Shown here piece by piece: positions 2,561 through 42,882 of a stretch of DNA of 64,000 nucleotides. The position numbers and the translations under genes were made by a program. Within the stretch, counting starts at the first letter, position 1. The number at the start of each line of letters is the position of its first letter. The notes below the pieces were generated by a model. The model made no database searches and was not told where the DNA came from. It saw only the letters and a program-made list of their open reading frames with translations. This stretch comes from Felis catus. Lineage: Eukaryota. The stretch covers positions 4,898,001 through 4,962,000 of the forward strand of contig NC_058368.1 of NCBI RefSeq assembly GCF_018350175.1, written 5' to 3'.

Positions 2561-4479
2561 CATTGGGTGTAGAGATTACTTGAAAATAAAATACTAAAAC
2601 AAAAAAAAATGCCCAATACTAATAAGTCACTTTTCTTAATAAAAATCAGGAAATTGGCCTCAAAAGAATTCCACCTCCTGTTCCACCTGTTAGGATTATA
2701 GGAACATTCATTTCGGGGAGGATAGACCAAATATATTTCGTGGAATCTCAGGATACTTAAGGATCTAGAAAGAGTGACATTTGAACTACACCCAGGGAAT
2801 TGTAAACATTTTTAAATGCTTCAAGGTATTTTTATATCTCTTTCTAAACAATATTCTAAAAACATAAGCTTTTCTTTAAAGATTTTATTTTTAAGTAATT
2901 CCACACACAAAGTGGGGCTCAAACTCACAACCCTGAGATCAAGAGTCACATGCTCCACTGGCTGAGCCAGCCGGGTGCCCCAAAAGATAAGCTTTTAAAG
3001 CAGAATATCATATATAATCTATCCACGACCAAAGAGTTCTACAGCCAGGCTAGAGGTCACAGTCACTTAAATTGCATTTGATATATTTAGAACTAGCTAT
3101 AAAATTATTTGTTCAATAAGCATGCTGAACACTTACCATGTTCAAGGAACAACAACAGACACTGTGAGCGTAAGAGGTTTTGTAAGCCTTTGTCTTCTAC
3201 TCCAATGTCTTATAATCTATTTGGGGTGATGGAACACACAGGTAGACAGTGATAACAGTAATGAAAATAATAACTAGCTGGCATTTATCTAGCACTTCTT
3301 ATATGAGGGACATTTTCTATGTTATTTCACTTAACCTAGTCCCCAGACAACTCTAAGAGGTGGGTGCTCTTGTTTAACAGACGTAGAAACAAAACTCAAG
3401 GAGACCCCACTGCACCCCTAAAGTCACTCTGCCAGAGAAACCAGGACGGGAGGTGTTCTGTGTATTGCAAAAGCCCGACCTTTCAACCAGCAAGTAGGCC
3501 GTGGTGAAAAAAGAGCCAGGAGTCTGGCATCAGTTGGAAATGATTGGATTTTAGGGGAAAACGTGATCAGGTGGCCCAATAAAGAAAGGCTTTGGGTTGG
3601 AAACCCAGCAATGTTGAACGTATTCTCAGCAGGCAGAAATAAGTACACGGAGAAAGAATATCAACAATGCATGAAGGCAGAAAATTCCAAGGCTGGTTCA
3701 GGAGATAGAGTATCAGCAAATCACGGATTCATGCTTAGAGGGTGGGACGGGGTCAGGTTAGGGGGTAGCAGAAGTTAAAGCACGAGTTTGGAAATGATCA
3801 CGTAGGTGCTAATGAATTGAAGCTTTTCCGTGGGTATATATGAAGCAAGACTCCTTTACAGTCATAATCCAATATGCAAAATGGATTAAAGATGGGGAGA
3901 AACTGGTTAGCTGCTGGTCCTTAGTCCTAGCTGCATATTAGAAACACCTAAGCAGTTTTTTTTTTTTTTCTTTTTTAATGCCAATACTGGGGCCTCAGCC
4001 AGGTCCAGAATCTCTGAGGTTGGGACCAGACATAGAATGTTTTTAAAGCTCTTCTAGGTGATTCCAATGTGGTATCAGAGCTGAGAATCACTGAGATTAT
4101 TGCAGTCATGCAGTGTATGTTTTTGAGCTAGGGTGATAGCAGGAGAAATGATCGAATGCCACAGACATGATGGAGGCAGAGGAGGAAATAATATTTGGGG
4201 AGAAATTATTTTTTAATTCAACTTATTTAAACTAAAACAAAAACAGGGGCGCCTGGGTGGCTCAGTCGGTTGAGCATCTGACTTCGGCTCAGGTCATGAT
4301 CTCACGGTTTGTGGGTTCGAATCCCACATTGGGCTCTGTGCTGACAGCTCGGAGCCTGGAGCCTGCTTCGGATTCTGCGTCTCCCTCTCTCTCTGCCCCT
4401 CCCCTGCTTGCGGTCTGTCTCTCTCTCAAAAATAAATAAGCAGTAAGAAAACTTTTAAAAAATAAAAGCAAAAACAAAA

Positions 4480-6620
4480 ACAGTTCACCCATTTCTCTCA
4501 CCCTCAGTCCCCTGCCTCTGGTAACAACTAATCTGTTCTCTGTATCTATGGGTTTGGTTTGATTGATTGACTGACTGATTGATTGATTATTCCACATATA
4601 AGAGAGATCATACGGCATTTGTTTTTTTCTTCCTGACTTATTTCACTTAACATAATGTCCTCAGGTCCATTCATGTTGCCTGTCGTGAATAGCAGTATTT
4701 CCTTCTTTTTTATGGCTGAGTAATTTTCCACTGTATATATGCACCACATTTTCTTTATGTATTCATCTATTGTTGGACCCTTAGGTTGTTTGCATATCTT
4801 GTCTATCGTAAATAATGCTGTAGTGAACCTGAGGGTGCAGATATCTTTTCGAGTTAGTGTTTTGTTGTATCCGGATTAACTCCCAGAAGTGGAATTGCTG
4901 GATCGTATGGTAGTTCTAGTTTTAATCTTTTGAAGAACCTCCATACTCTTTTCCATAGTGGCTGTACCAGTCTCCATCCCCACCAACAGTGCCCAAGGGC
5001 TCCCTTTTCTCCACAGCCTTGCCAACCCTTGTTATGTTTTGCTTTTTTGACAATAACCATTCTAACAGTTATGATGGGATCTCATTATGGTTTTGATTTG
5101 CAGTTTCCTGATAATTAGTGATGTTGAGCATCTCCCTATGTACCTGTCGGCCACACGTATGTCTTCTTTGGAAGGATATCTATTTTTTCCCATTCCTTAG
5201 GTTGCCTTTTCATTTTGTTGATGGCTTCCTTGGCTATGCACTTCATTATGATTTTGATTACATTTCCTTCATCATCGGTGATGTTGAACATCTTTTCATG
5301 TGCTTATTGGCCATTTGCACACCTTCTTTGGAAAAATGTCTATTCAAATCTTCATTTTGACTTGTGTCTTTTATGTAACAAGTCCCTTTTAAGATACGAT
5401 TTGTGTATATTTTCTCCCATTCTATGGGTTACCTTTTTCCCCCTTCTTTTTTGGTGGCATCCTTTGAAGTACAAAAGTTTTTTCTTTTGATGAAGTTCAA
5501 TTTTTCTATTTTTTTTGTTTTTGTTTTTGTTTTTGTTGCTTGTGCTCCTGGTGTCATGGCTAAGAAACCATGACCTAATTCAAGTTAATGAAGCTTACTC
5601 TGGAGTTTTCTTTCTTACATTTAGGACGATGATACATTTTGAGTTAAGTTTGCATGTGGAGTGAGTAGAAGTCAAACTATTTTATTTTAATGCAAATATT
5701 CAGTTGTCCTGACACCATTTGTTGAAAAGACTGTTCTTTCCCTGTTAAATGGTCTTGGCACTATTTTCAAGAATTAATTGACCGTAAATGGAAGGGTGTA
5801 TCTCTGGGCTCTGAATTTAATTCCATTAACCTCTATGTCTATCTTATGTCAGTCTCATACTATCTTGATACTGGAACTTTAAAGTAAGTTTTGAAATTGG
5901 GAGGTGTGAGTTCTCCAACTTTATTCTTTTTCAAGATCGTTTTGGCTATTCTGAGTTCCTTGCATTTCCATATGAATGTTAGCACCAGTGTGTTAATTTC
6001 TGGCCACAAAAAAAAAAAAAAAAAAAGGTAGCTGGGATTTTGATAAAACTGTTAAATGTTAAATCTATGGATCCATTTGTGGTATATTGCCATTTTGACA
6101 ATACGAAGCCATTTGATCTATTAACATGGGATGTCTTCCCTCTTACTTAGTCTTCTTCAAATTTTTTCGACAATGTATCATCATTTTTTTTAGGGCACAA
6201 GTCTCACACTATTTTGTAAAGTGATCTTATATATTTTATTCTTGTCTTATGCGACTGTAATGGAATTGGGCTTTATTAATGTTTATATTTTTATTTTGAG
6301 AGAGAGAGAGAGAGAGAGCACGCGCGCACAAGCAGGGAAGGGGCAGGGGAAATCCCAAGCAGGCTCTGCACTGTCAGCACAAAGCCTGACATGGGGCTCG
6401 ATCTCATGAACTGTGAGATCACGACCTGAGCTGAAATCAAGAGTCAGATGCTTGAGCCACCCAGATGCCCCTGAAATTGTTTTCTTAATTTTATTTGCAG
6501 ATTTTTAACTGCTAGTAAACTGAAATACAACTGATTTTTGTGTATTCATTTTGCAACCCATACAGGTATATACACTTGTTGAGTCATTGAATCTTACGTG
6601 TAAGATACAATGCATTTTCC
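4480..6620 (-). mobile_element. Degenerate LINE-1 fragments (ORF2 C-terminus and 3' UTR), interrupted by a SINE
   Basis: Translations CWWGWRLVQPLWKRVWRFFKRLKLELPYDPAIPLLG and WCIYTVENYSAIKKKEIL. Confidence 0.85.
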
Positions 6621-33933: not shown

Positions 33934-34155
33934 CAGTGGTTCTCAACTAGGGCAACCGTATTAAGTCCCGCACCCCTCACCCTCTGGAGGCATTTTTGGC
34001 TGTCTCAGCTGGGAGGGGGTGGGGTTACCCCCTGCACCTGGTGGCGGGTGAGACCAGGGATGACGCTAAGTATCACACAACGAACAACAGGACAGCCCCC
34101 ACAACAAGGAATTAGCCAACCCAAAATGTTGATCGCGCCGAGGTGGAAAACCCTG
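33934..34155. mobile_element. MER20-like hAT DNA transposon fossil
   Basis: CAGTGGTTCTCAAC...GTGGAAAACCCTG termini and internal AGGACAGCCCCCACAACAA. Confidence 0.7.
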
Positions 34156-34313
34156 GAAACAGACCCCGTGTCCAGAATGTATGCGCTCACAGATAAAATG
34201 CCATTCTTTATGGGGGGGGGGGGGAGCTGTTGGAGGCAACTACGTACAAAGTATGCTCGTGGACAAATTCTCTGAAAAGAAAAACAAGAATTACCACCGG
34301 GAGGGGATGATAT

Positions 34314-34837
34314 TGTTAGGAGCCAAGCTCCTAGGCCCTATGGAATGAGAGTTGGCGCAAAGAACCACACGGCACTCCGACGTCGGCAGAGAGTCTTTAC
34401 TGGTGCACCAGGGCTCCCCAGTGTTGGAAAGCGGGAGAGCCCCGATAAACGGGGTCACAGGTCTTTTATGCTATTTTGAGTCTTATTTGCATACAGGCTG
34501 GTGGTAGGCTCTCTGCTCGGTGATGGTTAGGGTTGTGGGTAGTTTCGTCCCGGGGAAGCTTGGGAAATGAAGTTTCTTTTGGCTGATGCAACTTGGAGCC
34601 CGGGCTGCGAAGCGGCTAGGGACCTTTCGGTTAGGGTTGGGCGCGTAAGCAAGATTACAGAAGCGAGAGGAAAGCGGTTATCTATGTAGCAGCCTGTACA
34701 GCTCCCCCGGTGTCCAGATGTCTAACCGCAGAAATCCTGTTTGTTAACTATTGGGAGTACAGGCTCTGCGAGTGAGGCGTTTACAAAGTTGAAGGTAGGG
34801 TGGGGGTGTTTTAGTAAGCTAGACCAGGGGTCTCTCA
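34314..34837 (-). repeat. 3' LTR (524 bp)
   Basis: Preceded on the minus strand by the PPT; starts TGAGAGACCCC and ends CCTAACA. Confidence 0.97.
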
Positions 34838-34854
34838 TTCCCCCATTTTCTTTT
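34838..34854 (-). promoter_or_regulatory. Polypurine tract
   Basis: AAAAGAAAATGGGGGAA directly abutting the 3' LTR. Confidence 0.9.
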
Positions 34855-34872
34855 GGCATCGAATGAAACCTT

Positions 34873-35365
34873 TCATTCAATTGTATCTGGCCTTTCTGCA
34901 TCAAATTGTCTTAGTTGGTGGTACTGTTGGGTTAGAACCAAGGCCTGGATGACAGAGAGTCTTTCTCTTATGAACTGTACCAAGTGGTTAAGGATGCGGG
35001 GTCCGAACATCAGTATTAATAGTAGGAGTATTAAGGGGCCCATGAGGGAGGAGACTAAAGTGGTAAACCAGGGGGATTTGTTATACTACCCCTCAAACCA
35101 GCCTTGCTGAGATTCGAACAGCTTTTGCCTTTGTTTGAGTCTCTCCCTCAGCTTGGCCATGCTATCCCTTATTATCCCTGTGTGATCAGCATAGAAGCAG
35201 CACTCTTCTTTGAGGGCAGCACATAACCCGCCTTCTTGTAAGATCAACAGGTCAAGTCAAGGTGTAAACCTGATGTGGGTTTCCCTCTTTGACAATTTTA
35301 GCTCCAATTCCCGCCCCCAAGCTTGTGAGGACCCACAGAAAGACCATTCCCGCTGGGGGTTTCAT
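34873..35365 (-). pseudogene. env: env remnant (signal peptide joined out of frame to the TM C-terminal part)
   Basis: ATG at 35365 gives [37 protein letters not shown] (stop 35252-35254). Another frame gives [26 protein letters not shown]...[15 protein letters not shown]...[18 protein letters not shown] with the CX6CC motif and membrane anchor. Confidence 0.93.
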
Positions 35366-35399
35366 TTTGGGTTCGTGCAGGGACAGGGTGGATTAGCAG

Positions 35400-38300
35400 T
35401 CAGACACGGGAGAGTCTTATCTTAAGAGGGTTCTCCGAACGGTGGAGCTTCCAGGTTTTGGGAGTTTCTGGTCCAGGGGTTTTTGGGGCTGCTTTGGCGT
35501 GCGATGCGTGAATCCAGGCGGCAATCCCGTCAACCTTTATGGCGGTGGGCGTGGTCAGCAGGACGATGTAAGGTCCCTTCCAACGAGGCTCCAATCCTTG
35601 AGAGCGGTGCCGCCGGACGTACACGGAGTCTCCTACCTGAAATGGGTGGCTAGTTTGTGGATGTCCTGGCCGATACAGTTCGGCCAGGGGTGTCCAGATT
35701 TGGGCCTGCACCGCTTGCAGCCCTTTTAGTCGGGCTTGTAAATCAGTCTTAGGATCGGAGGGGGAGAAGGAATTGAGCAAGGTTGACAAAGGGGGGGGTC
35801 CCCCATAAAGGATTTCATATGGGGTGAGCCCGAAACGGTTGGGTGTATTTCTGGCTCTTAACAAGGCCAGAGATAGGAGGCGTCTCCAATCTTTTAAGCC
35901 AGTCTCTAAGGTCAATTTAGTAAGGGTCTCTTTTATTGTTCTATTCATTCTTTTTACCTGTCCTGAGCTCTGGGGCCTATATGCACAGTGTAATTTCCAA
36001 TTAATCCCCAGTGTCCTGGCGAGCCCCTGACTTACCTGGGAAACGAAGGCCGGCCCGTTATCTGACCCGATTACCTTGGGAAGTCCAAATCTGGGGAAGA
36101 TTTCTTCTAAAATCTTCTTGGCTACCACGTGTGCCGTTTCTTGTCGGGTGGGGTAGGCTTCTACCCATCCTGAAAAGGTGTCTACAAACACTAATAGGTA
36201 CTTATACCCCGCATGGTGAGGCTTTACTTCAGTAAAGTCTATTTCCCAATAGACTCCTGGGCGGTTACCACGAGTCCGTTTTCCTTCCGGCACTCGGGTA
36301 GCCCCAGCGTTTACCTGTTGACAGACCTTACAGGCGGAGGTTACCTGTTCTATGAGGGTGCCTGCCTTAGGGATTAAGAAGTCAGTTTTTTTAATCAGTA
36401 ACTTCAGCTTCTGATTACTTAAATGTGTCCAGGCGTGCATTTGTTGGATCATTGCCAGGGCTTCCTTTCGGGGAAGGACTATCTTTCCTTCTTTTTCCCA
36501 GTCTTTAGTGTCCTGATTCAGTATAGCCCCTATGGCCTTTGCCTCTTCCTGGTCTTCTGGGGTGTAAGCATATTTGTTGGTCGTAAGATTGGTTTCTTCA
36601 AGTTTTGTGGTCAAAGTCAACGTTTCTGCCACAGCGACTTGCCTGGCTACTTGGTCTGCCTGTCTATTTCCTGTTGCAATTGGGTCTTGTCCTTTCTGAT
36701 GCCCGGGGCAATGAATTATGGCTACTTTTCGGGGAAGAAAAAGGGCCTTTAATAATGCAATGATTTCAGCTTTGTTTTTAATTTCTTTTCCTTCTGAGGT
36801 TAGTAGGCCCCTTCTTTCATAAATACTCCCATGTGTATGAGCCGTTGCAAAGGCATATCGGCTATCTGTGTATATGTTAGCCTTTTTCCCTTCGGATAAT
36901 TCTAGGGCCTTGGTGAGCGCTATCAGCTCGGCCTTTTGTGCAGACGTGCCAGGAGGTAGTGATTGTGCCCATATGATGTGGTGGCCATCTACTACCGCCG
37001 CTCCCGCCCTCCGGGTACCTGAGTCGATGTAACTGCTCCCGTCCGTATACCAAGAGTGATCCGCATCTGGGAGCTCTTGATCTTTAAGATCTTCCCGTGT
37101 CCCATGGGTCTCAGCCAGTACTTGCCGGCAATCGTGTGCGCTCTGTTGGTCTTCCGGTGCCGGTAGCAACGTGGCAGGGTTCAAGGTAACCGGAGGTCCA
37201 AATTGGATGCGGTCTGTGTCCAGTAGGAGGGCCTGGTAGTGAGTTAGGCGTGCGTTGGTTATCCATCGGTCCGGTGGCTGCCGCACTACGGCCTCTAAAG
37301 CATGCGGGGTGATAACAGTTAGTGGCTGTCCAAGGGTTAATTTGGCAGAGTCCTTGACCAGCATAGCAGTGGCTGCCATGATACGAAGACATGGGGGCCA
37401 CCCCGCTGCCACAGGGTCCAACTTTTTGGACAGGTATGCTACTGGTCTCTTCCAGGGCCCTAGTTTTTGGGTTAGAACTCCTTTGGCAATTCCTTGTTTC
37501 TCGTCTATGAAGAGGGTAAAGGGCTTGGAGGTGTCTGGCAACCCGAGAGCCGGGGCGGAAAGGAGGGCCTCTTTTAGGGCCTCAAAGGCTGACTGATGTT
37601 TTTCCTGCCAGGTGAAGGGTGCACTCTCTTTCGTGAGGGCATAGAGGGGGGCGGCTAGCTCAGCGAACCCAGGTATCCATAAGCGACAGAACCCAGCAGT
37701 TCCCAGGAATTCACGTACCTCTCTGGGGTTCTGGGGCGGCGGAATGCGAGCCACAGTTTCTATTCGCCCAGGGGTGAGCCATCTTTTCCCCTCACTCAGT
37801 ATGTACCCCAGGTAGGTTACCTTGGTTTGGCAAATCTGGGCCTTCTTGGCGGATGCCCGTTATCCTTTTTCTCCTAATTCCCGGAGCAGATGTCTGGTAC
37901 CTAGTATGCAGGCTTCTTTTGTGGGGGCGGCCAGAAGAAGGTCATCCACATATTGGAGTAGAGTTACTTCTGGATGTTGAGTCCGGAAGTCAGTTAGGTC
38001 CCTGTGAAGAGCCTCATCAAAGAGAGTGGGGGAGTTTTTAAACCCTTGGGGTAAGCGGGTCCAGGTTAATTGGCCTGAGATTCCTCTTTTAGGGTCCCTC
38101 CATTCGAAAGCAAACAGTTCCTGGCTCTGGGGGGCCAAGGGTAAGCAAAAGAATGCATCTTTTAGGTCCAGTACTGTGTACCAGGTACGGTCTGGGCTCA
38201 GGGTGCTGAGCAAGTTATAGGGATTGGGGACCGTAGGATGGATATCCATAGTCCTTTTGTTGACCTCCCTTAAGTCTTGGACAGGCCTGTAGTCCCGAGT

Positions 38301-38970
38301 ACCAGGTTTTTTCACTGGTAAGAGAGGGGTATTCCAAGGTGAGCGGCAAGGTCGCAGGACCCCAAGCTCTAGAAATCTGGTAATGTGTGGCTGAATGCCC
38401 ATATGAGCCTCCTTGCTCATGGGATACTGCCTGATAGATACAGGCATTGCCGTGGGCTTTAGGTCAATTATGATTGGGGCCTGGCATTTGGCTCGACCAA
38501 GCCCTCCCGTTTCGGCCCAGGCCTGGGGAAAGTCCTGCAGCCAGGCTTCGAGGAGGTTAGTGGTGACCGGGGTTTCAAAAAGTCTGTGTTCGTCTTGTAA
38601 GGACACAGTTAAGACTTGGATAGGCTGGCCATCCCGGTTTAGCACTTGGGCCCCCGCTTTGGAGAAGTGGATCTGAACTCCAAGCTTGGTTAGGAGGTCT
38701 CGTCCTAAAAGGGGGTATGGGCATTCGGGTACTACCAGAAAAGAGTGTGTCACTGTCCCTTGCCCTAAATCAACCGTACGGTAGTTAGTCCATTTGTGAA
38801 TTTTTCTTCCTGTCGCTCCTTGAACCCAAGAGGTACGAGAGGACAGAGGCCCGTTTGCCTTGGTTAGGACCGAGTGCTGAGCTCCTGTGTCCACCAGGAA
38901 GGTGGTGGGATGCCCCCCTACAGATAAAGTTAGCCGGGGCTCGGGGGGGGGCTCCAGAGCCCTGACGTCC
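35400..38970 (-). pseudogene. pol: pro-pol (PR, RT, RNase H, IN), disrupted
   Basis: [30 protein letters not shown] and WEIDF/SDNGPAF motifs. +1 frameshift in a C9 run (38943-38951), in-frame TAA at 37860-37862, and QVKRMN in place of QVERMN. Confidence 0.96.
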
Positions 38971-40540
38971 CTACTCGCTCTCTTCGCCCAAGGTGAGTAC
39001 GGGGGTAGATTTCTTTGAGTCTCTAGGGCGCTTAGGGCAGTCTTTGATCCAGTGCCCGCGCTCTTTGCAATAGGCACATTGGTCTTTTTCTATTTTGGGC
39101 CGCCTCTTCGTTTCCCCTGACTTTCCTGTTCTATTTTCTGTCACTACAGCTGCCAGGATTTTTGTTAGATGTTTATCTCTCTTTCGATCTCTTCGTTCCT
39201 CCCGTGCTTCCTGCTCTTTTGCTAGCCTAGCCTCCTTTTCTTCTGGAGTTTCCCTCTTGTTATATACCTTTTCTGCCTCCCTAACTAGTTCCTGCAACCC
39301 ATAGGTTTGAATCCCATCTAGCCGTTGGAGCTTTCCTTTTATATCAGATGCTGCCTGATCTATGAACGACATGGCCACGGTAGCCTTATGTTCTGGAGCC
39401 TCGGGGTTAAATGGAGTATACATCCGAAACCCCTCTAGAAGCCGTTCCATAAAGGCTGCGGGGCTTTCCTCTTTTCCTTGAATTATGGTCCTTACCTTGG
39501 CCAAATTGGTGGGCTGTTTCCCTGCCCCCTTGAGACCCGCCAACAGAGCCTGGCGATAGATTCGGAGACTCTCCCTACCTGGAGCCGTTTCATAGTCCCA
39601 GTCCGGGCGGGTGAGGGGAAACCCCTCATCTATTTCGTTGGGGAGCTGGGTTGGAAAGCCTCCAGGAGAACTTGTTGCCTTTCCTCTGTAGTCAAAAGGA
39701 CCTGTAGGAGCTGCTGGCAGTCGTCCCAGGTGGGCTGGTGTGTGAGGAGGATAGATTCTATCAGTGAGGTTAGGGCCTGGGGTTCTTGGGAAAAGGAAGG
39801 GTTATGAGTTTTCCAGTTGTAAAGATCAGATGCAGAAAATGGCCAATACTGGATAGTCCGGTTGACAGTCCGGAGAGGAAACAGGGAAGATTGCCAAGTG
39901 GGAGGGCCGTTCGGGTCGTCTGATCGCCGGAGACGGAGGCGGGGGAAGAAATTGGGGAGGGGGAGGAGGAACTGGAGGCAGGAGGGGAAGTAGGGGCCAC
40001 CGGGGTCAAGGCGGGGGCCAGGGGCGGATTATAGGGTGGAGGCAGTAAGAGGGGGTTGTGGGGCGGTGAAGTCTCTTCGGGGGCGTGGGGCGGCGAAGAC
40101 AAAGCGTCTAGGAGGAGGGGGTCCCTTTGGGACTCATCGGGAAAAACCGGTTTGGGCGGATCTGGAGTTTGGGTTGAGGCTCGGTTTTTGGAGGTTTTCA
40201 GGGGAAGGAGGGTAGACTGAGATAGGGGGCAGGAAGGGAGGAAGTGTTTCATCCATGCCGGAGGATTCCGAATGAGATCCTCCCAAGTGAGGATATAGGC
40301 TACTTGATCTGGATGACCTTGTGGTCCGGGATCCATTACCTTCGTCTTAACCTGTAATATAACAAAGAGGTCAAAAGTCCCGTCCCGGGGCCACCCTACA
40401 GATAGGGTGGGCCACTCCGATGAACAAAAAGTTCGCCATCGACCTTTTCGAACCTCAACGGATAGATTGCGAGCTCTTGCCTGGACGTCCGAGAAATGAG
40501 TCAGAGTCAAAGATAGAGGAGTAGTCAGTGTCTGTCCCAT
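38971..40540 (-). pseudogene. gag: gag, with two frameshifting deletions
   Basis: [13 protein letters not shown] start, PPPY late domain, CA ([26 protein letters not shown]), [19 protein letters not shown] at 38971-38973. Frame breaks at ~39940 and ~39660. Confidence 0.95.
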
Positions 40541-40747
40541 GGCTGTGTCGTCCTGTCCACGCGTCCACACACGCACACTTACACACACACACACGAATAT
40601 GACTACAATGTCGATACAGACCAGACAACACAGACTAGACAACAACCAAGGAGCCGCGGCCAGGTATTCAGATTCAGATGGCAGGGGAGGCCTGCCTTCG
40701 GATTTGGGGCGTCTGACGAACTTGTCAGTTCTCCTCTACAAGCACCA

Positions 40748-40836
40748 CCGAGGCGTCCCTCGGGGCCGGGGTGTGAAGGTTCAGGACACGTCTGTCCTCC
40801 TTCAACACTCCTACTGAGGTGGCCGGCCGGCCTCAG
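40748..40836 (-). promoter_or_regulatory. Gammaretroviral core packaging/dimerisation signal
   Basis: Two perfect GACG-tetraloop hairpins (AGGACA-GACG-TGTCCT, 40783-40798; CCGAGG-GACG-CCTCGG, 40748-40763), preceded by a stem carrying the GGCCGGCC palindrome (40814-40836). Confidence 0.85.
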
Positions 40837-40979
40837 AATTCACAGTTCAGAGACAAAACATAGAACACAATACCTGTGTGTAGACAAAGGCACAGAAGTC
40901 TGTCTTCAGTCAGTCCGTCAGTGGCCCGGGCCGGAGAGTCATCTACCGACGGGGCCGGGGTTCTCCTGCCTTCCCTCGC

Positions 40980-40997
40980 TTCCCGGCCAACGCACCA
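40980..40997 (-). promoter_or_regulatory. Primer binding site complementary to tRNA-Gly
   Basis: TGGTGCGTTGGCCGGGAA, 2 nt inside the 5' LTR; complementary to the tRNA-Gly(UCC) 3' end ...TTCCCGGCCAACGCA-CCA. Confidence 0.92.
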
Positions 40998-40999
40998 AA

Positions 41000-41523
41000 T
41001 GTTAGGAGCCAAGCTCCTAGGCCCTATGGAATGAGAGTTGGCGCAAAGAACCACACGGCACTCCGACGTCGGCAGAGAGTCTTTACTGGTGCACCAGGGC
41101 TCCCCAGTGTTGGAAAGCGGGAGAGCCCCGATAAACGGGGTCACAGGTCTTTTATGCTATTTTGAGTCTTATTTGCATACAGGCTGGTGGTAGGCTCTCT
41201 GCTCGGTGATGGTTAGGGTTGTGGGTAGTTTCGTCCCGGGGAAGCTTGGGAAATGAAGTTTCTTTTGGCTGATGCAACTTGGAGCCCGGGCTGCGAAGCG
41301 GCTAGGGACCTTTCGGTTAGGGTTGGGCGCGTAAGCAAGATTACAGAAGCGAGAGGAAAGCGGTTATCTATGTAGCAGCCTGTACAGCTCCCCCGGTGTC
41401 CAGATGTCTAACCGCAGAAATCCTGTTTGTTAACTATTGGGAGTACAGGCTCTGCGAGTGAGGCGTTTACAAAGTTGAAGGTAGGGTGGGGGTGTTTTAG
41501 TAAGCTAGACCAGGGGTCTCTCA
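41000..41523 (-). repeat. 5' LTR (524 bp)
   Basis: Direct repeat of 34314-34837 with no difference found by eye; followed on the minus strand by the PBS. Confidence 0.97.
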
Positions 41524-42882
41524 ATATCAGATGATCTCAGATGGTTCTCTTGCGTTTTAAATCTTCCTATCGTGTGGTTTGGGCCATAAGTAAAGGAAAG
41601 AAAAACGAATCGTCCCAGAGGGTGGCACAGGATTCGGCTACTAATTTAAACAAGATGACCAGCACTTGGAAATTCACTGACCCTCAGACTCTCTCCACTC
41701 ACCCAGTGGGCCAATTTGTCCCCACCCAACTCACTTTGCAAATGCACGAGATAGAATCACACCAAGAGAAATCAACATTTAGAGGGGCAAGAAAATCCAT
41801 CCATGCGAAAATAATGTCAGTAGGGTTTTTAATATTCATTTAAGTTGTACTTCATTGTTCACTAAACCAGAAAATGACAGCAATCGCCGTGACTGGTTAG
41901 GTCACTTGGGCCAAAAAAATTTCGGGTTGCCTGGCTTTTCCTTTTCAAATTTTTCTTTTTTCCTTTTTTCTTCCCAGAAACTGTTCTTAACTGCCAAGTC
42001 ATTAAAAACTGCCGAACCAATCTGTGCATAAAACACAACCGAAGCAGAACAGGTCAGAGGGAAAAAAAGGATGCACTGAAAACACCTTCTACATTATACG
42101 ACGGATGGTTTCCATAATAACAAAAGAAAAAAGAAAATCGGACATTTATAATGAAATGAAGTGGCTGAACATCAGAAGACAGTCTTAAACTGAGGTGGAA
42201 AAAGACTCCAACACATAAGACAAAAGGCCAATCAGGGCAAGACGTATAAAAGTCCTATTCACTGACGGCCAAAGAACGGCTTAGCTCCCAACATACTATT
42301 AAAGAACCACTCACACCCCACACTTCTCCTTAGCTGAGCGTGGGAGACACAATAACTGCTCTTAGTCACTGTCAGCACAGGGGGGGTAATTTGCATGTGA
42401 TTTCCATACAATCTTTTTGCAGGCAGATTATGGCATTCACAAGTCTGAACTTTTCATTTTATTTTTTTTCAAAGAGAAGGATCCATTGACCGGCAGTATG
42501 GACAGCTGTTGTTATTTCTGCCCCTAACTGCTGGATGTTTGCAAGCTCCCAAATGGTCCTTTTGATTTATGTTTTAACACTCTGATCAATGCAAGGAAAC
42601 GTGAAAACCTAACCTTTAATCTTTGAGATGGTTGAGATGGAATGAGCTTAGCTCTCCACGAGAAAATGCCAAAGTTACGAAATTATAAACTACATTATTT
42701 ATGGAAGAGGAGTATGTCTTGACAAAAATTAGCTTTAAGGCAGAATTCTGTAATGGGTACAGATTATTTGATCTGCCCATTCTATCCTGTCTAGTCTTGC
42801 TGTCTTGCTGTCATAATCTGTTTATTTATTCATTGATTCATTTATGCCACACTCCACAAATGCTTTCAGGAAGTGCACGCGT

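Follow-up and report, generated by a model that had tools for sequence, protein, structure and literature searches.

A recent, replication-defective FcEV/ERV-DC-related provirus in the cat genome and its probable spread by proteins supplied in trans

How can a provirus in which gag, pol and env are all broken carry two long terminal repeats (LTRs) that do not differ at a single position? This question is raised by a gammaretroviral provirus of 7,210 bp on the minus strand at 34314-41523 of a 64-kb stretch of the Felis catus assembly (G000:C1:4898001-4962000, hereafter the window). In this study, we compared this provirus (the window copy) with its relatives in the same genome. The explanation that we favor, with a probability of roughly 0.85, is that a replication-defective derivative of the FcEV/ERV-DC (Repbase ERV1-3_FCa) and RD-114-related group, spread by proteins acting in trans, integrated recently into the germline. 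Most of its lesions were found in other proviruses that had integrated independently.

Architecture, cis signals and coding lesions

Alignment of the two 524-bp LTRs gave 0 mismatches, and the identity ended exactly at both LTR edges. The LTRs begin with TG and end with CA, and a 4-bp target duplication lies outside them. The primer-binding site (PBS) is exactly complementary to the 3' end (last 15 nt plus CCA) of tRNA-Gly(TCC) genes in the same genome. Hairpins with GACG loops are gammaretroviral packaging elements, and two hairpins with GACG tetraloops were located individually at ~40783-40798 and ~40748-40763. A TATA-like ATAAAA and the poly(A)-signal variant AGTAAA, both putative motifs picked out by eye, are contained in the LTR. 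At the level of sequence, the LTR, PBS, packaging hairpins and polypurine tract (PPT) all appear to be retained. The initial annotation had described two 524-bp LTRs without a mismatch, a perfect ATAT duplication, an 18-nt PBS, a PPT and packaging hairpins, and each of these was found. The features are as follows, with fractions referring to 18 copies compared below.

34310-34313, no strand: target-site duplication ATAT, left copy; a single ATAT in the empty-site contig of run X3
34314-34837, minus: 3' LTR (sense orientation), 524 bp, identical to 41000-41523
34838-34854, minus: PPT, directly upstream of the 3' LTR; identical tract in 15/18 copies
34873-35258, minus: env remnant, the last ~128 codons of the transmembrane protein (TM), out of frame with the env start and with an internal stop; Pfam TLV_coat profile positions 521-560
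35258/35259, minus: junction of the 1,496-bp env deletion; ~36 codons of the env start retained, ATG at 35363-35365
35400-37859, minus: second pol part, with the reverse transcriptase (RT) connection, RNase H and integrase, 819 codons; Pfam RNase_H, rve, zf-H2C2 and MLVIN_C
37860-37862, minus: stop codon inside the RT domain; private, 1/18 copies
37863-38970, minus: protease and first RT part, in a frame that differs from that of gag; Pfam RVP and RVT_1; longer C-run at 38943-38951
38971-38973, minus: gag stop
38971-40540, minus: gag (MA, p12, CA, NC), split into three frames; Pfam on three pieces, against the unbroken 623-aa gag of L040
40748-40798, minus: two leader hairpins with GACG tetraloops, of packaging-signal type, inside a helper-like block (see below); local folds of -14.9 and -15.7 kcal/mol
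40980-40997, minus: PBS, 18 nt, complementary to the 3' end of tRNA-Gly(UCC)
41000-41523, minus: 5' LTR (sense orientation), 524 bp
41524-41527, no strand: target-site duplication ATAT, right copy

Lesions were defined against two full-length 8.9-kb relatives in the same genome, L040 and L041, in which gag is unbroken over 623 codons and env over 671 codons. In the window copy, Pfam recognized MA, p30 CA in two parts, a single zinc knuckle, protease, RT, RNase H, integrase with a C-terminus of MLV type and the last 40 Env profile positions, all broken or truncated. The p12 region of gag has lost 73 bp (plus 6 bp) at junction 39946/39945, and CA has lost 28 bp at junction 39658/39657, with the string quoted by the initial annotation at 39649-39668. 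Shortly past the gag stop, the C-run at 38943-38951 has one base more than in in-frame copies and shifts the frame of pro. RT is interrupted by the stop codon at 37860-37862, and integrase has K in the E position of its D,D-35-E motif (35952-35954; spacing counted in the sequence). The env deletion of 1,496 bp at junction 35259/35258, where the second quoted string was found at 35245-35260, joins ~36 start codons out of frame to the last 128 TM codons, and the TM remnant itself has a stop at 35086-35088.

All seven lesions of the initial annotation were thus present when checked against the full-length relatives. Its statement that every open reading frame is dead holds for gag, pol and env as complete genes; it does not hold for the MA-p12 frame, which stays open for 256 codons from the gag ATG. 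As judged from its sequence, the window copy cannot make its own Gag, Pol or Env. Gag and pol lie in one frame with a single stop between them in 11/18 related copies, and not in the window copy, where the C-run shifts the frame. The one-frame gag-pol design thus appears to belong to the family, with the window copy as a broken version of it.

The PBS occurs in two forms among the 18 copies, one base apart, one exact for tRNA-Gly(TCC) and the other for tRNA-Gly(GCC/CCC) genes. The two forms could reflect priming by different tRNA-Gly species or a CpG transition (G/A dimorphism). Ten exact tRNA-Gly(TCC)-type 3' ends were observed on one strand of G000:C42:63407345-63477833, nine of them at ~5.87-kb spacing, which suggests a tandem array of a unit containing a tRNA-Gly gene. 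No Pfam match was obtained for the 15 long stop-to-stop frames elsewhere in the window.

Lesions in independent, young integrations

Genome searches scored the best 40 candidates, which for the LTR query were 40 of 165. At least 40 LTR matches are thus present in the genome. Nine LTR pairs at 94-95% identity are spaced ~6.69 kb apart as in the window copy, which gives at least 10 proviruses of this LTR type, and no fewer than 8 solo LTRs of this type were found in addition, each with its own duplication. The 18 copies compared were the window copy, L031-L039 (chosen by LTR-pair spacing), the full-length L040 and L041, and L042-L047 (chosen by the gag junction region). We use A1 for the defective lineage of the window copy, in which most of env is missing and gag is frameshifted by two deletions. 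The lesions were distributed among the 18 copies as follows, the window copy included.

p12 73-bp deletion: 13/18
CA 28-bp deletion: 15/18
env 1,496-bp deletion, same junction: 8/18
TM stop: 7/18
K in the integrase E position: 2/18 (window copy and L031 only)
C-run length of 9, 8 or 7: 4, 11 and 3 of 18
RT stop: 1/18 (window copy)

Scoring of 40 matches to the gag junction region gave 13 with the 73-bp deletion (12 of which also had the 28-bp deletion), 3 with the 28-bp deletion only and 24 with neither. Eight of 40 scored matches cross the env junction. The two junctions quoted by the initial annotation do recur at other loci, the CA junction being present in 15 and the env junction in 8 of the 18 copies.

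A matching 4-bp duplication flanks 17/18 copies and differs from copy to copy; L040 is the non-matching exception. None of the 36 flanks matched another at near-identity, and the non-self matches were 82-88% repeats plus two of 23-26 bp at 96%. LTR pairs differ at 0-4 positions per copy and are identical in 10/16 defective copies. The integrations of the compared copies are independent and young. Since five of the seven lesions occur at other loci with target duplications of their own, they predate the integration of the window copy, and their carriers kept integrating elsewhere. The claim that the RNA was already defective when it integrated is upheld for these five, on grounds other than those first given for it.

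The original grounds were that so many lesions could hardly have built up while the LTRs stayed unchanged. The window copy has 9 private substitutions in 6,162 internal bp. It has 1 private LTR substitution, which is present in both LTRs and therefore arose before integration, and there are 0 differences between the LTRs. If all nine substitutions were post-integration, the chance of 0 LTR differences would be (6162/7210)^9, or ~0.24, which is not significant. This comparison of lesion count with LTR identity was therefore dropped as evidence for pre-integration defects, and the argument does not stand by itself. It follows from the same value that the private RT stop could be post-integration. 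Both this value and the RT stop being private to the window copy are compatible with post-insertion decay, in which an intact virus integrated and all seven lesions accumulated at the locus. That account is refuted for five lesions, whose junctions or codons recur unchanged in 2 to 15 of the 18 copies, each copy with its own duplication; the insertion is also young enough for empty alleles to be segregating still. We consider decay of an intact virus at this locus highly improbable.

Spread at the DNA level is the next alternative: either a decayed provirus was copied by segmental duplication, or gene conversion copied the lesions and homogenized the LTRs. The swarm of related copies is highly mosaic, as conversion might leave it. 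Segmental duplication does not produce separate 4-bp duplications and unrelated flanks, and conversion would have had to replace entire proviruses at no fewer than 8 loci, along with LTRs 16% divergent from the full-length type. The exchanged blocks in the window copy are short and numerous, as expected of template switching, and empty alleles mark a true insertion. These observations make DNA-level spread very unlikely.

The state of the insertion site was compared over 33714-34913 in contigs of four coded runs. A 183-nt contig of run X3 covers 34232-34313 and then continues with 101 letters of the right flank after the second ATAT, which is an empty site with a single ATAT. The same empty site was found in run X15, with 16 letters beyond. 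A 372-nt contig of run X1 covers 33972-34343 with no mismatch and extends 30 letters into the LTR. Since the site is empty in the X3 and X15 contigs, the insertion is polymorphic, and it is very recent. The initial annotation had envisaged both filled and empty ATAT sites, and both states occur within these four runs. The flank contig of run X11 (organism B) ends at 34195, before the junction, and leaves the site uncovered in organism B. X11 contigs at 34739-34913 contain an A1-type LTR and the LTR-internal junction with 1 mismatch, and their PBS has the form that the window copy lacks; the family thus extends beyond organism A. At rates of 1.2e-8 and 2.2e-9 per site per year, 0 differences over 524 bp set an upper age bound of ~0.24 million and 1.3 million years, respectively. 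At 34211-34226, some 90 bp away from the insertion, a G run is two letters longer in the X15 contig and carries three substitutions there; it is probably a length-polymorphic homopolymer.

These contigs also bear on whether the identical LTRs and the unusual structure could be products of assembly collapse or a mis-join. Repeats are known to cause errors in assemblies, and we found no specific support for one here. The X1 contig follows the flank-LTR junction without mismatch, the X3 and X15 contigs show exactly the empty site predicted by ATAT, and nine other loci have the same architecture, each with its own flanks. An artefact is barely credible.

Two further observations concern members of the family. 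The U3 27-bp direct repeat has one unit in the window copy and two in nine sister copies, and the 578-bp solo LTR L027 (G000:C10:132513710-132514287) apparently has three. Among the copies with a broken gag, L034 (G000:C37:31930237-31937876) has an uninterrupted pro-pol frame of 1,189 codons in phase with its last gag piece. Since its gag is frameshifted upstream, this frame would not be translatable by the usual readthrough route.

Helper-like blocks and supply in trans

We used 280 diagnostic sites at which six sister copies agree with one another and differ from both full-length copies. The window copy follows its sisters at 237/280 sites and the full-length type at 43/280. The 43 are grouped in five blocks (provirus positions 544-580, 757-1124, 1307-1480, 3787-3795 and 4624-5000), and the sites form 11 runs where ~74 are expected at random (z ~ -14). 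In window positions, the blocks are as follows.

40400-40767 and 40044-40217, minus: main helper-like blocks, in the leader/packaging region, MA and p12; 30 diagnostic sites
36524-36900, minus: helper-like block in RNase H/integrase; 8 diagnostic sites
37729-37737 and 40944-40980, minus: smaller helper-like blocks; 2 and 3 diagnostic sites

Over provirus positions 688-1182, the window copy differs from L040 at 3/495 positions, against 3-9% for the sisters. The patch at 688-1250 is 99% identical to 23 copies of full-length type, and the 40 scored matches include no other A1 copy. The window copy has its packaging hairpins within a helper-derived block. Outside the blocks, L031 comes closest, with 17/5,831 differences, and it too has the integrase K. 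The simplest reading of this mosaic is template switching with a co-packaged full-length FcEV/ERV-DC-type RNA, after the split from the L031 lineage. An ERV-DC, an RD-114-related virus or FeLV had been proposed as the helper. The blocks match the full-length FcEV/ERV-DC type, which agrees with the first of these, and nothing pointing to FeLV was found.

The steps that we infer are these. The A1 lineage has lost most of env and gained two frameshifting gag deletions, so that it cannot make capsid. Pol of gammaretroviruses is produced only by readthrough, as Gag-Pol; since gag is frameshifted upstream, capsid and enzymes alike had to come in trans. A1 keeps its LTRs, PBS, packaging hairpins and PPT, and its RNA was probably transcribed, packaged and reverse-transcribed by the Gag and Gag-Pol of intact relatives in the same cell and then integrated. 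Env was possibly also supplied in trans. Repeated rounds of such trans-mobilization would give a family of copies. In the cycle or cycles that led to the window copy, the defective RNA would have been co-packaged with a full-length ERV-DC-type RNA, and several RT template switches would have introduced a helper-derived leader/MA region and a helper-derived pol patch.

A variant of this explanation is that the helper-dependent lineage spread as an intracellular germline retrotransposon on helper Gag-Pol, with no extracellular, Env-dependent step. Env loss reportedly goes with intracellular proliferation in other endogenous retrovirus (ERV) families, as Magiorkinis et al. are said to have described in 2012, and all of the 16 copies with gag lesions except L044 lack most of env. 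On the other side, the copy number is modest (10 or more proviruses and 8 or more solo LTRs), and the sequences do not separate the two routes. We regard the purely intracellular route as a serious possibility, while leaning away from it.

Selection in pol was also considered, with L044 excluded from the defective set since its gag frame is open. Private pol substitutions in defective copies were 37 non-synonymous and 22 synonymous (63% non-synonymous; 76% is expected for uniform change), and differences fixed between the full-length and defective groups were 3 non-synonymous and 16 synonymous. Relaxed selection in pol was rejected as a test: the private counts do not separate trans-mobilization from ordinary decay, and the class of shared variants opposes simple neutral drift.

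Several points weigh against spread in trans by helper proteins. The pol variants present in at least two defective copies, 18 non-synonymous and 35 synonymous, are unexpected for a neutral passenger; we assume that this synonymous excess stems from pol segments imported from functional viruses by recombination. Packaging and transfer are deduced, and the helper-derived blocks would be indirect evidence of co-packaging. Both full-length copies that were read, L040 and L041, have open gag and env and a broken pol. At least 24 more gag-complete copies are present among the 40 scored gag matches, and the case for a competent helper comes from the literature, with competent ERV-DC loci reported in Table 1 of PMC5923473. 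The polymorphism is drawn from four runs and the family from the best 40 candidates. The X1 contig misses the bridging rule by one letter, and the assembly may itself derive from the X1 sample. Finally, the C-run is a slippage hotspot whose three length states are scattered over unrelated copies, and up to two lesions (the private RT stop and the recurrent C-run state) may be post-integration or independently arisen.

Related defective genomes and known systems

Related defective proviruses carry similar lesions on other backbones. L045-L047 (C22:5.43 Mb, C13:137.72 Mb and C11:33.03 Mb) form a second defective type of ~7.3 kb with full-length-type LTRs. They have only the 28-bp CA deletion in gag, a common 1-bp integrase frameshift and an env deletion of their own of ~1.56 kb. 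L036 and L039 have A1-type LTRs yet the env deletion of L045-L047. L042-L044 have the 73-bp gag deletion in common with the window copy, as well as the R-U5 part of the LTR at 95% identity; their U3 and PPT are different. L044 (G000:C2:89006800-89016000) is a 7.8-kb provirus with identical 457-bp LTRs that has the 73-bp deletion without the 28-bp deletion. An additional 11-bp deletion makes its total loss a multiple of three, and its gag frame is open over 526 codons. The env of L044 belongs to the RD-114/BaEV/simian type-D group (87% to BaEV p20E, 62% to SRV Env), and by its sequence L044 resembles the RD-114-related sequences (RDRS) of PMC4313119.

Within this set, L042 (C16:63978800-63986800) and L043 (C17:190718200-190726100) are 6,757-bp proviruses on different chromosomes with the duplications GATG and ACAT. 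They have 1 and 3 private substitutions, respectively, and identical LTR pairs. Both also lack a further 133 bp of gag and 1.6 kb that runs from the end of pol into env.

The occurrence of the lesions in different combinations on different backbones points to frequent recombination between co-packaged genomes. We tentatively extend this to a wider proposal, which we hold to be doubtful. The cat germline might contain a still or very recently active swarm of helper-dependent ERV-DC/RD-114-related genomes, of at least three structural types with lesions in different combinations, that exchanges segments (LTR, packaging signal, gag-pol and env) with replication-competent ERV-DC in each cycle. The window copy would then be a snapshot of one passenger-helper recombinant. 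If so, the swarm would be both a competitor for helper particles, in a defective-interfering manner, and a reservoir of segments for new infectious recombinants.

The gag-pol nucleotide identity of the window copy to full-length 8.9-kb copies is 96-97% (96.6% to L040). The Env of L040 is 99% identical to the Felis catus Env Q9XSY3 and 90% to I7HEG6, and it is only via L040 that the window copy is linked to named sequences. We take Q9XSY3 and I7HEG6 to be the FcEV and ERV-DC Env entries. ERV-DC proviruses are ~8.8-9 kb, with 13 reported loci, some replication-competent and some insertionally polymorphic, according to PMC5923473 and bioRxiv 10.1101/2024.05.09.593269; for FcEV, PMC4313119 gives 15-20 copies. 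The window copy is like ERV-DC/FcEV (Repbase ERV1-3_FCa) in PBS type, PPT, 4-bp duplication, young age and gag-pol identity. It differs from them in its length of 7.2 kb, a U3 that is ~16% divergent, the two gag frameshift deletions and an env deletion of 1.5 kb. No description of a deleted, multi-copy, helper-dependent derivative in cats was found in the literature searched, with subscription papers and Repbase outside the search.

Defective RDRS of cats can recombine to give infectious virus, as described by Shimode et al. (PMC4313119). Unlike RDRS, the window copy lacks a BaEV-type env, and its TM remnant is gamma-type (FcEV-like); amplification of defective genomes is not described by Shimode et al. 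The likeness to RDRS lies in L042-L044, with the same 73-bp gag deletion and an R-U5 at 95%, and in the RD-114/BaEV/type-D env of L044.

ERV-DC, FcEV and RD-114-related sequences are still a source of infectious virus and of recombinants, FeLV-D and RD-114 among them. Their insertions are polymorphic and can alter traits of cats, as in the case of an ERV1-3_FCa LTR insertion in Fgfr2 (bioRxiv 10.1101/2022.12.12.520105). If the A1 lineage is a helper-dependent offshoot, counts of "ERV-DC-like" loci would mix autonomous and passenger elements, its recent germline activity would have needed a working helper, and passenger-helper recombination would be readable directly from the genome.

Mouse ETn/MusD and IAP I-delta-1 are non-autonomous LTR elements that keep their cis signals, spread via coding-competent relatives and have given recent polymorphic insertions. 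By analogy, the window copy may be placed beside them as a non-autonomous element with its cis signals kept. ETn/MusD and IAP are, however, betaretrovirus-like and strictly intracellular, and ETn is nearly without coding sequence, whereas the window copy is a gammaretrovirus with most of gag-pol. Complementation in trans of ERVs was reportedly treated by Belshaw et al. in 2005. In deleted HERV-H (RTVL-H), a deleted form with the same lesions outnumbers or rivals the intact form, as here; HERV-H is tens of millions of years old and fixed, whereas the window family is young enough to be polymorphic.

In the koala, recKoRV shows defective recombinant genomes of a recently endogenized virus spreading beside competent ones. 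Recent endogenization with a similar spread of defective or recombinant genomes is reported for CrERV (mule deer) and ERVK[2-1-LTR] (cattle) in PMC8662619 and PMC10924933. These cases involve other hosts and viruses, and the window copy differs from them in carrying patches of helper origin, which would record co-packaging. Gammaretroviral helpers package and move VL30 elements, which have no retroviral coding homology. The initial comparison with VL30 fits by analogy as far as movement by a helper is concerned; in structure it does not, since clear gag, pro, pol and TM remnants are recognizable by Pfam in the window copy. The principle of a trans-mobilized, non-autonomous ERV is thus already known from ETn/MusD, IAP I-delta-1, HERV-H and recKoRV, and by analogy the cat lineage would be a further case.

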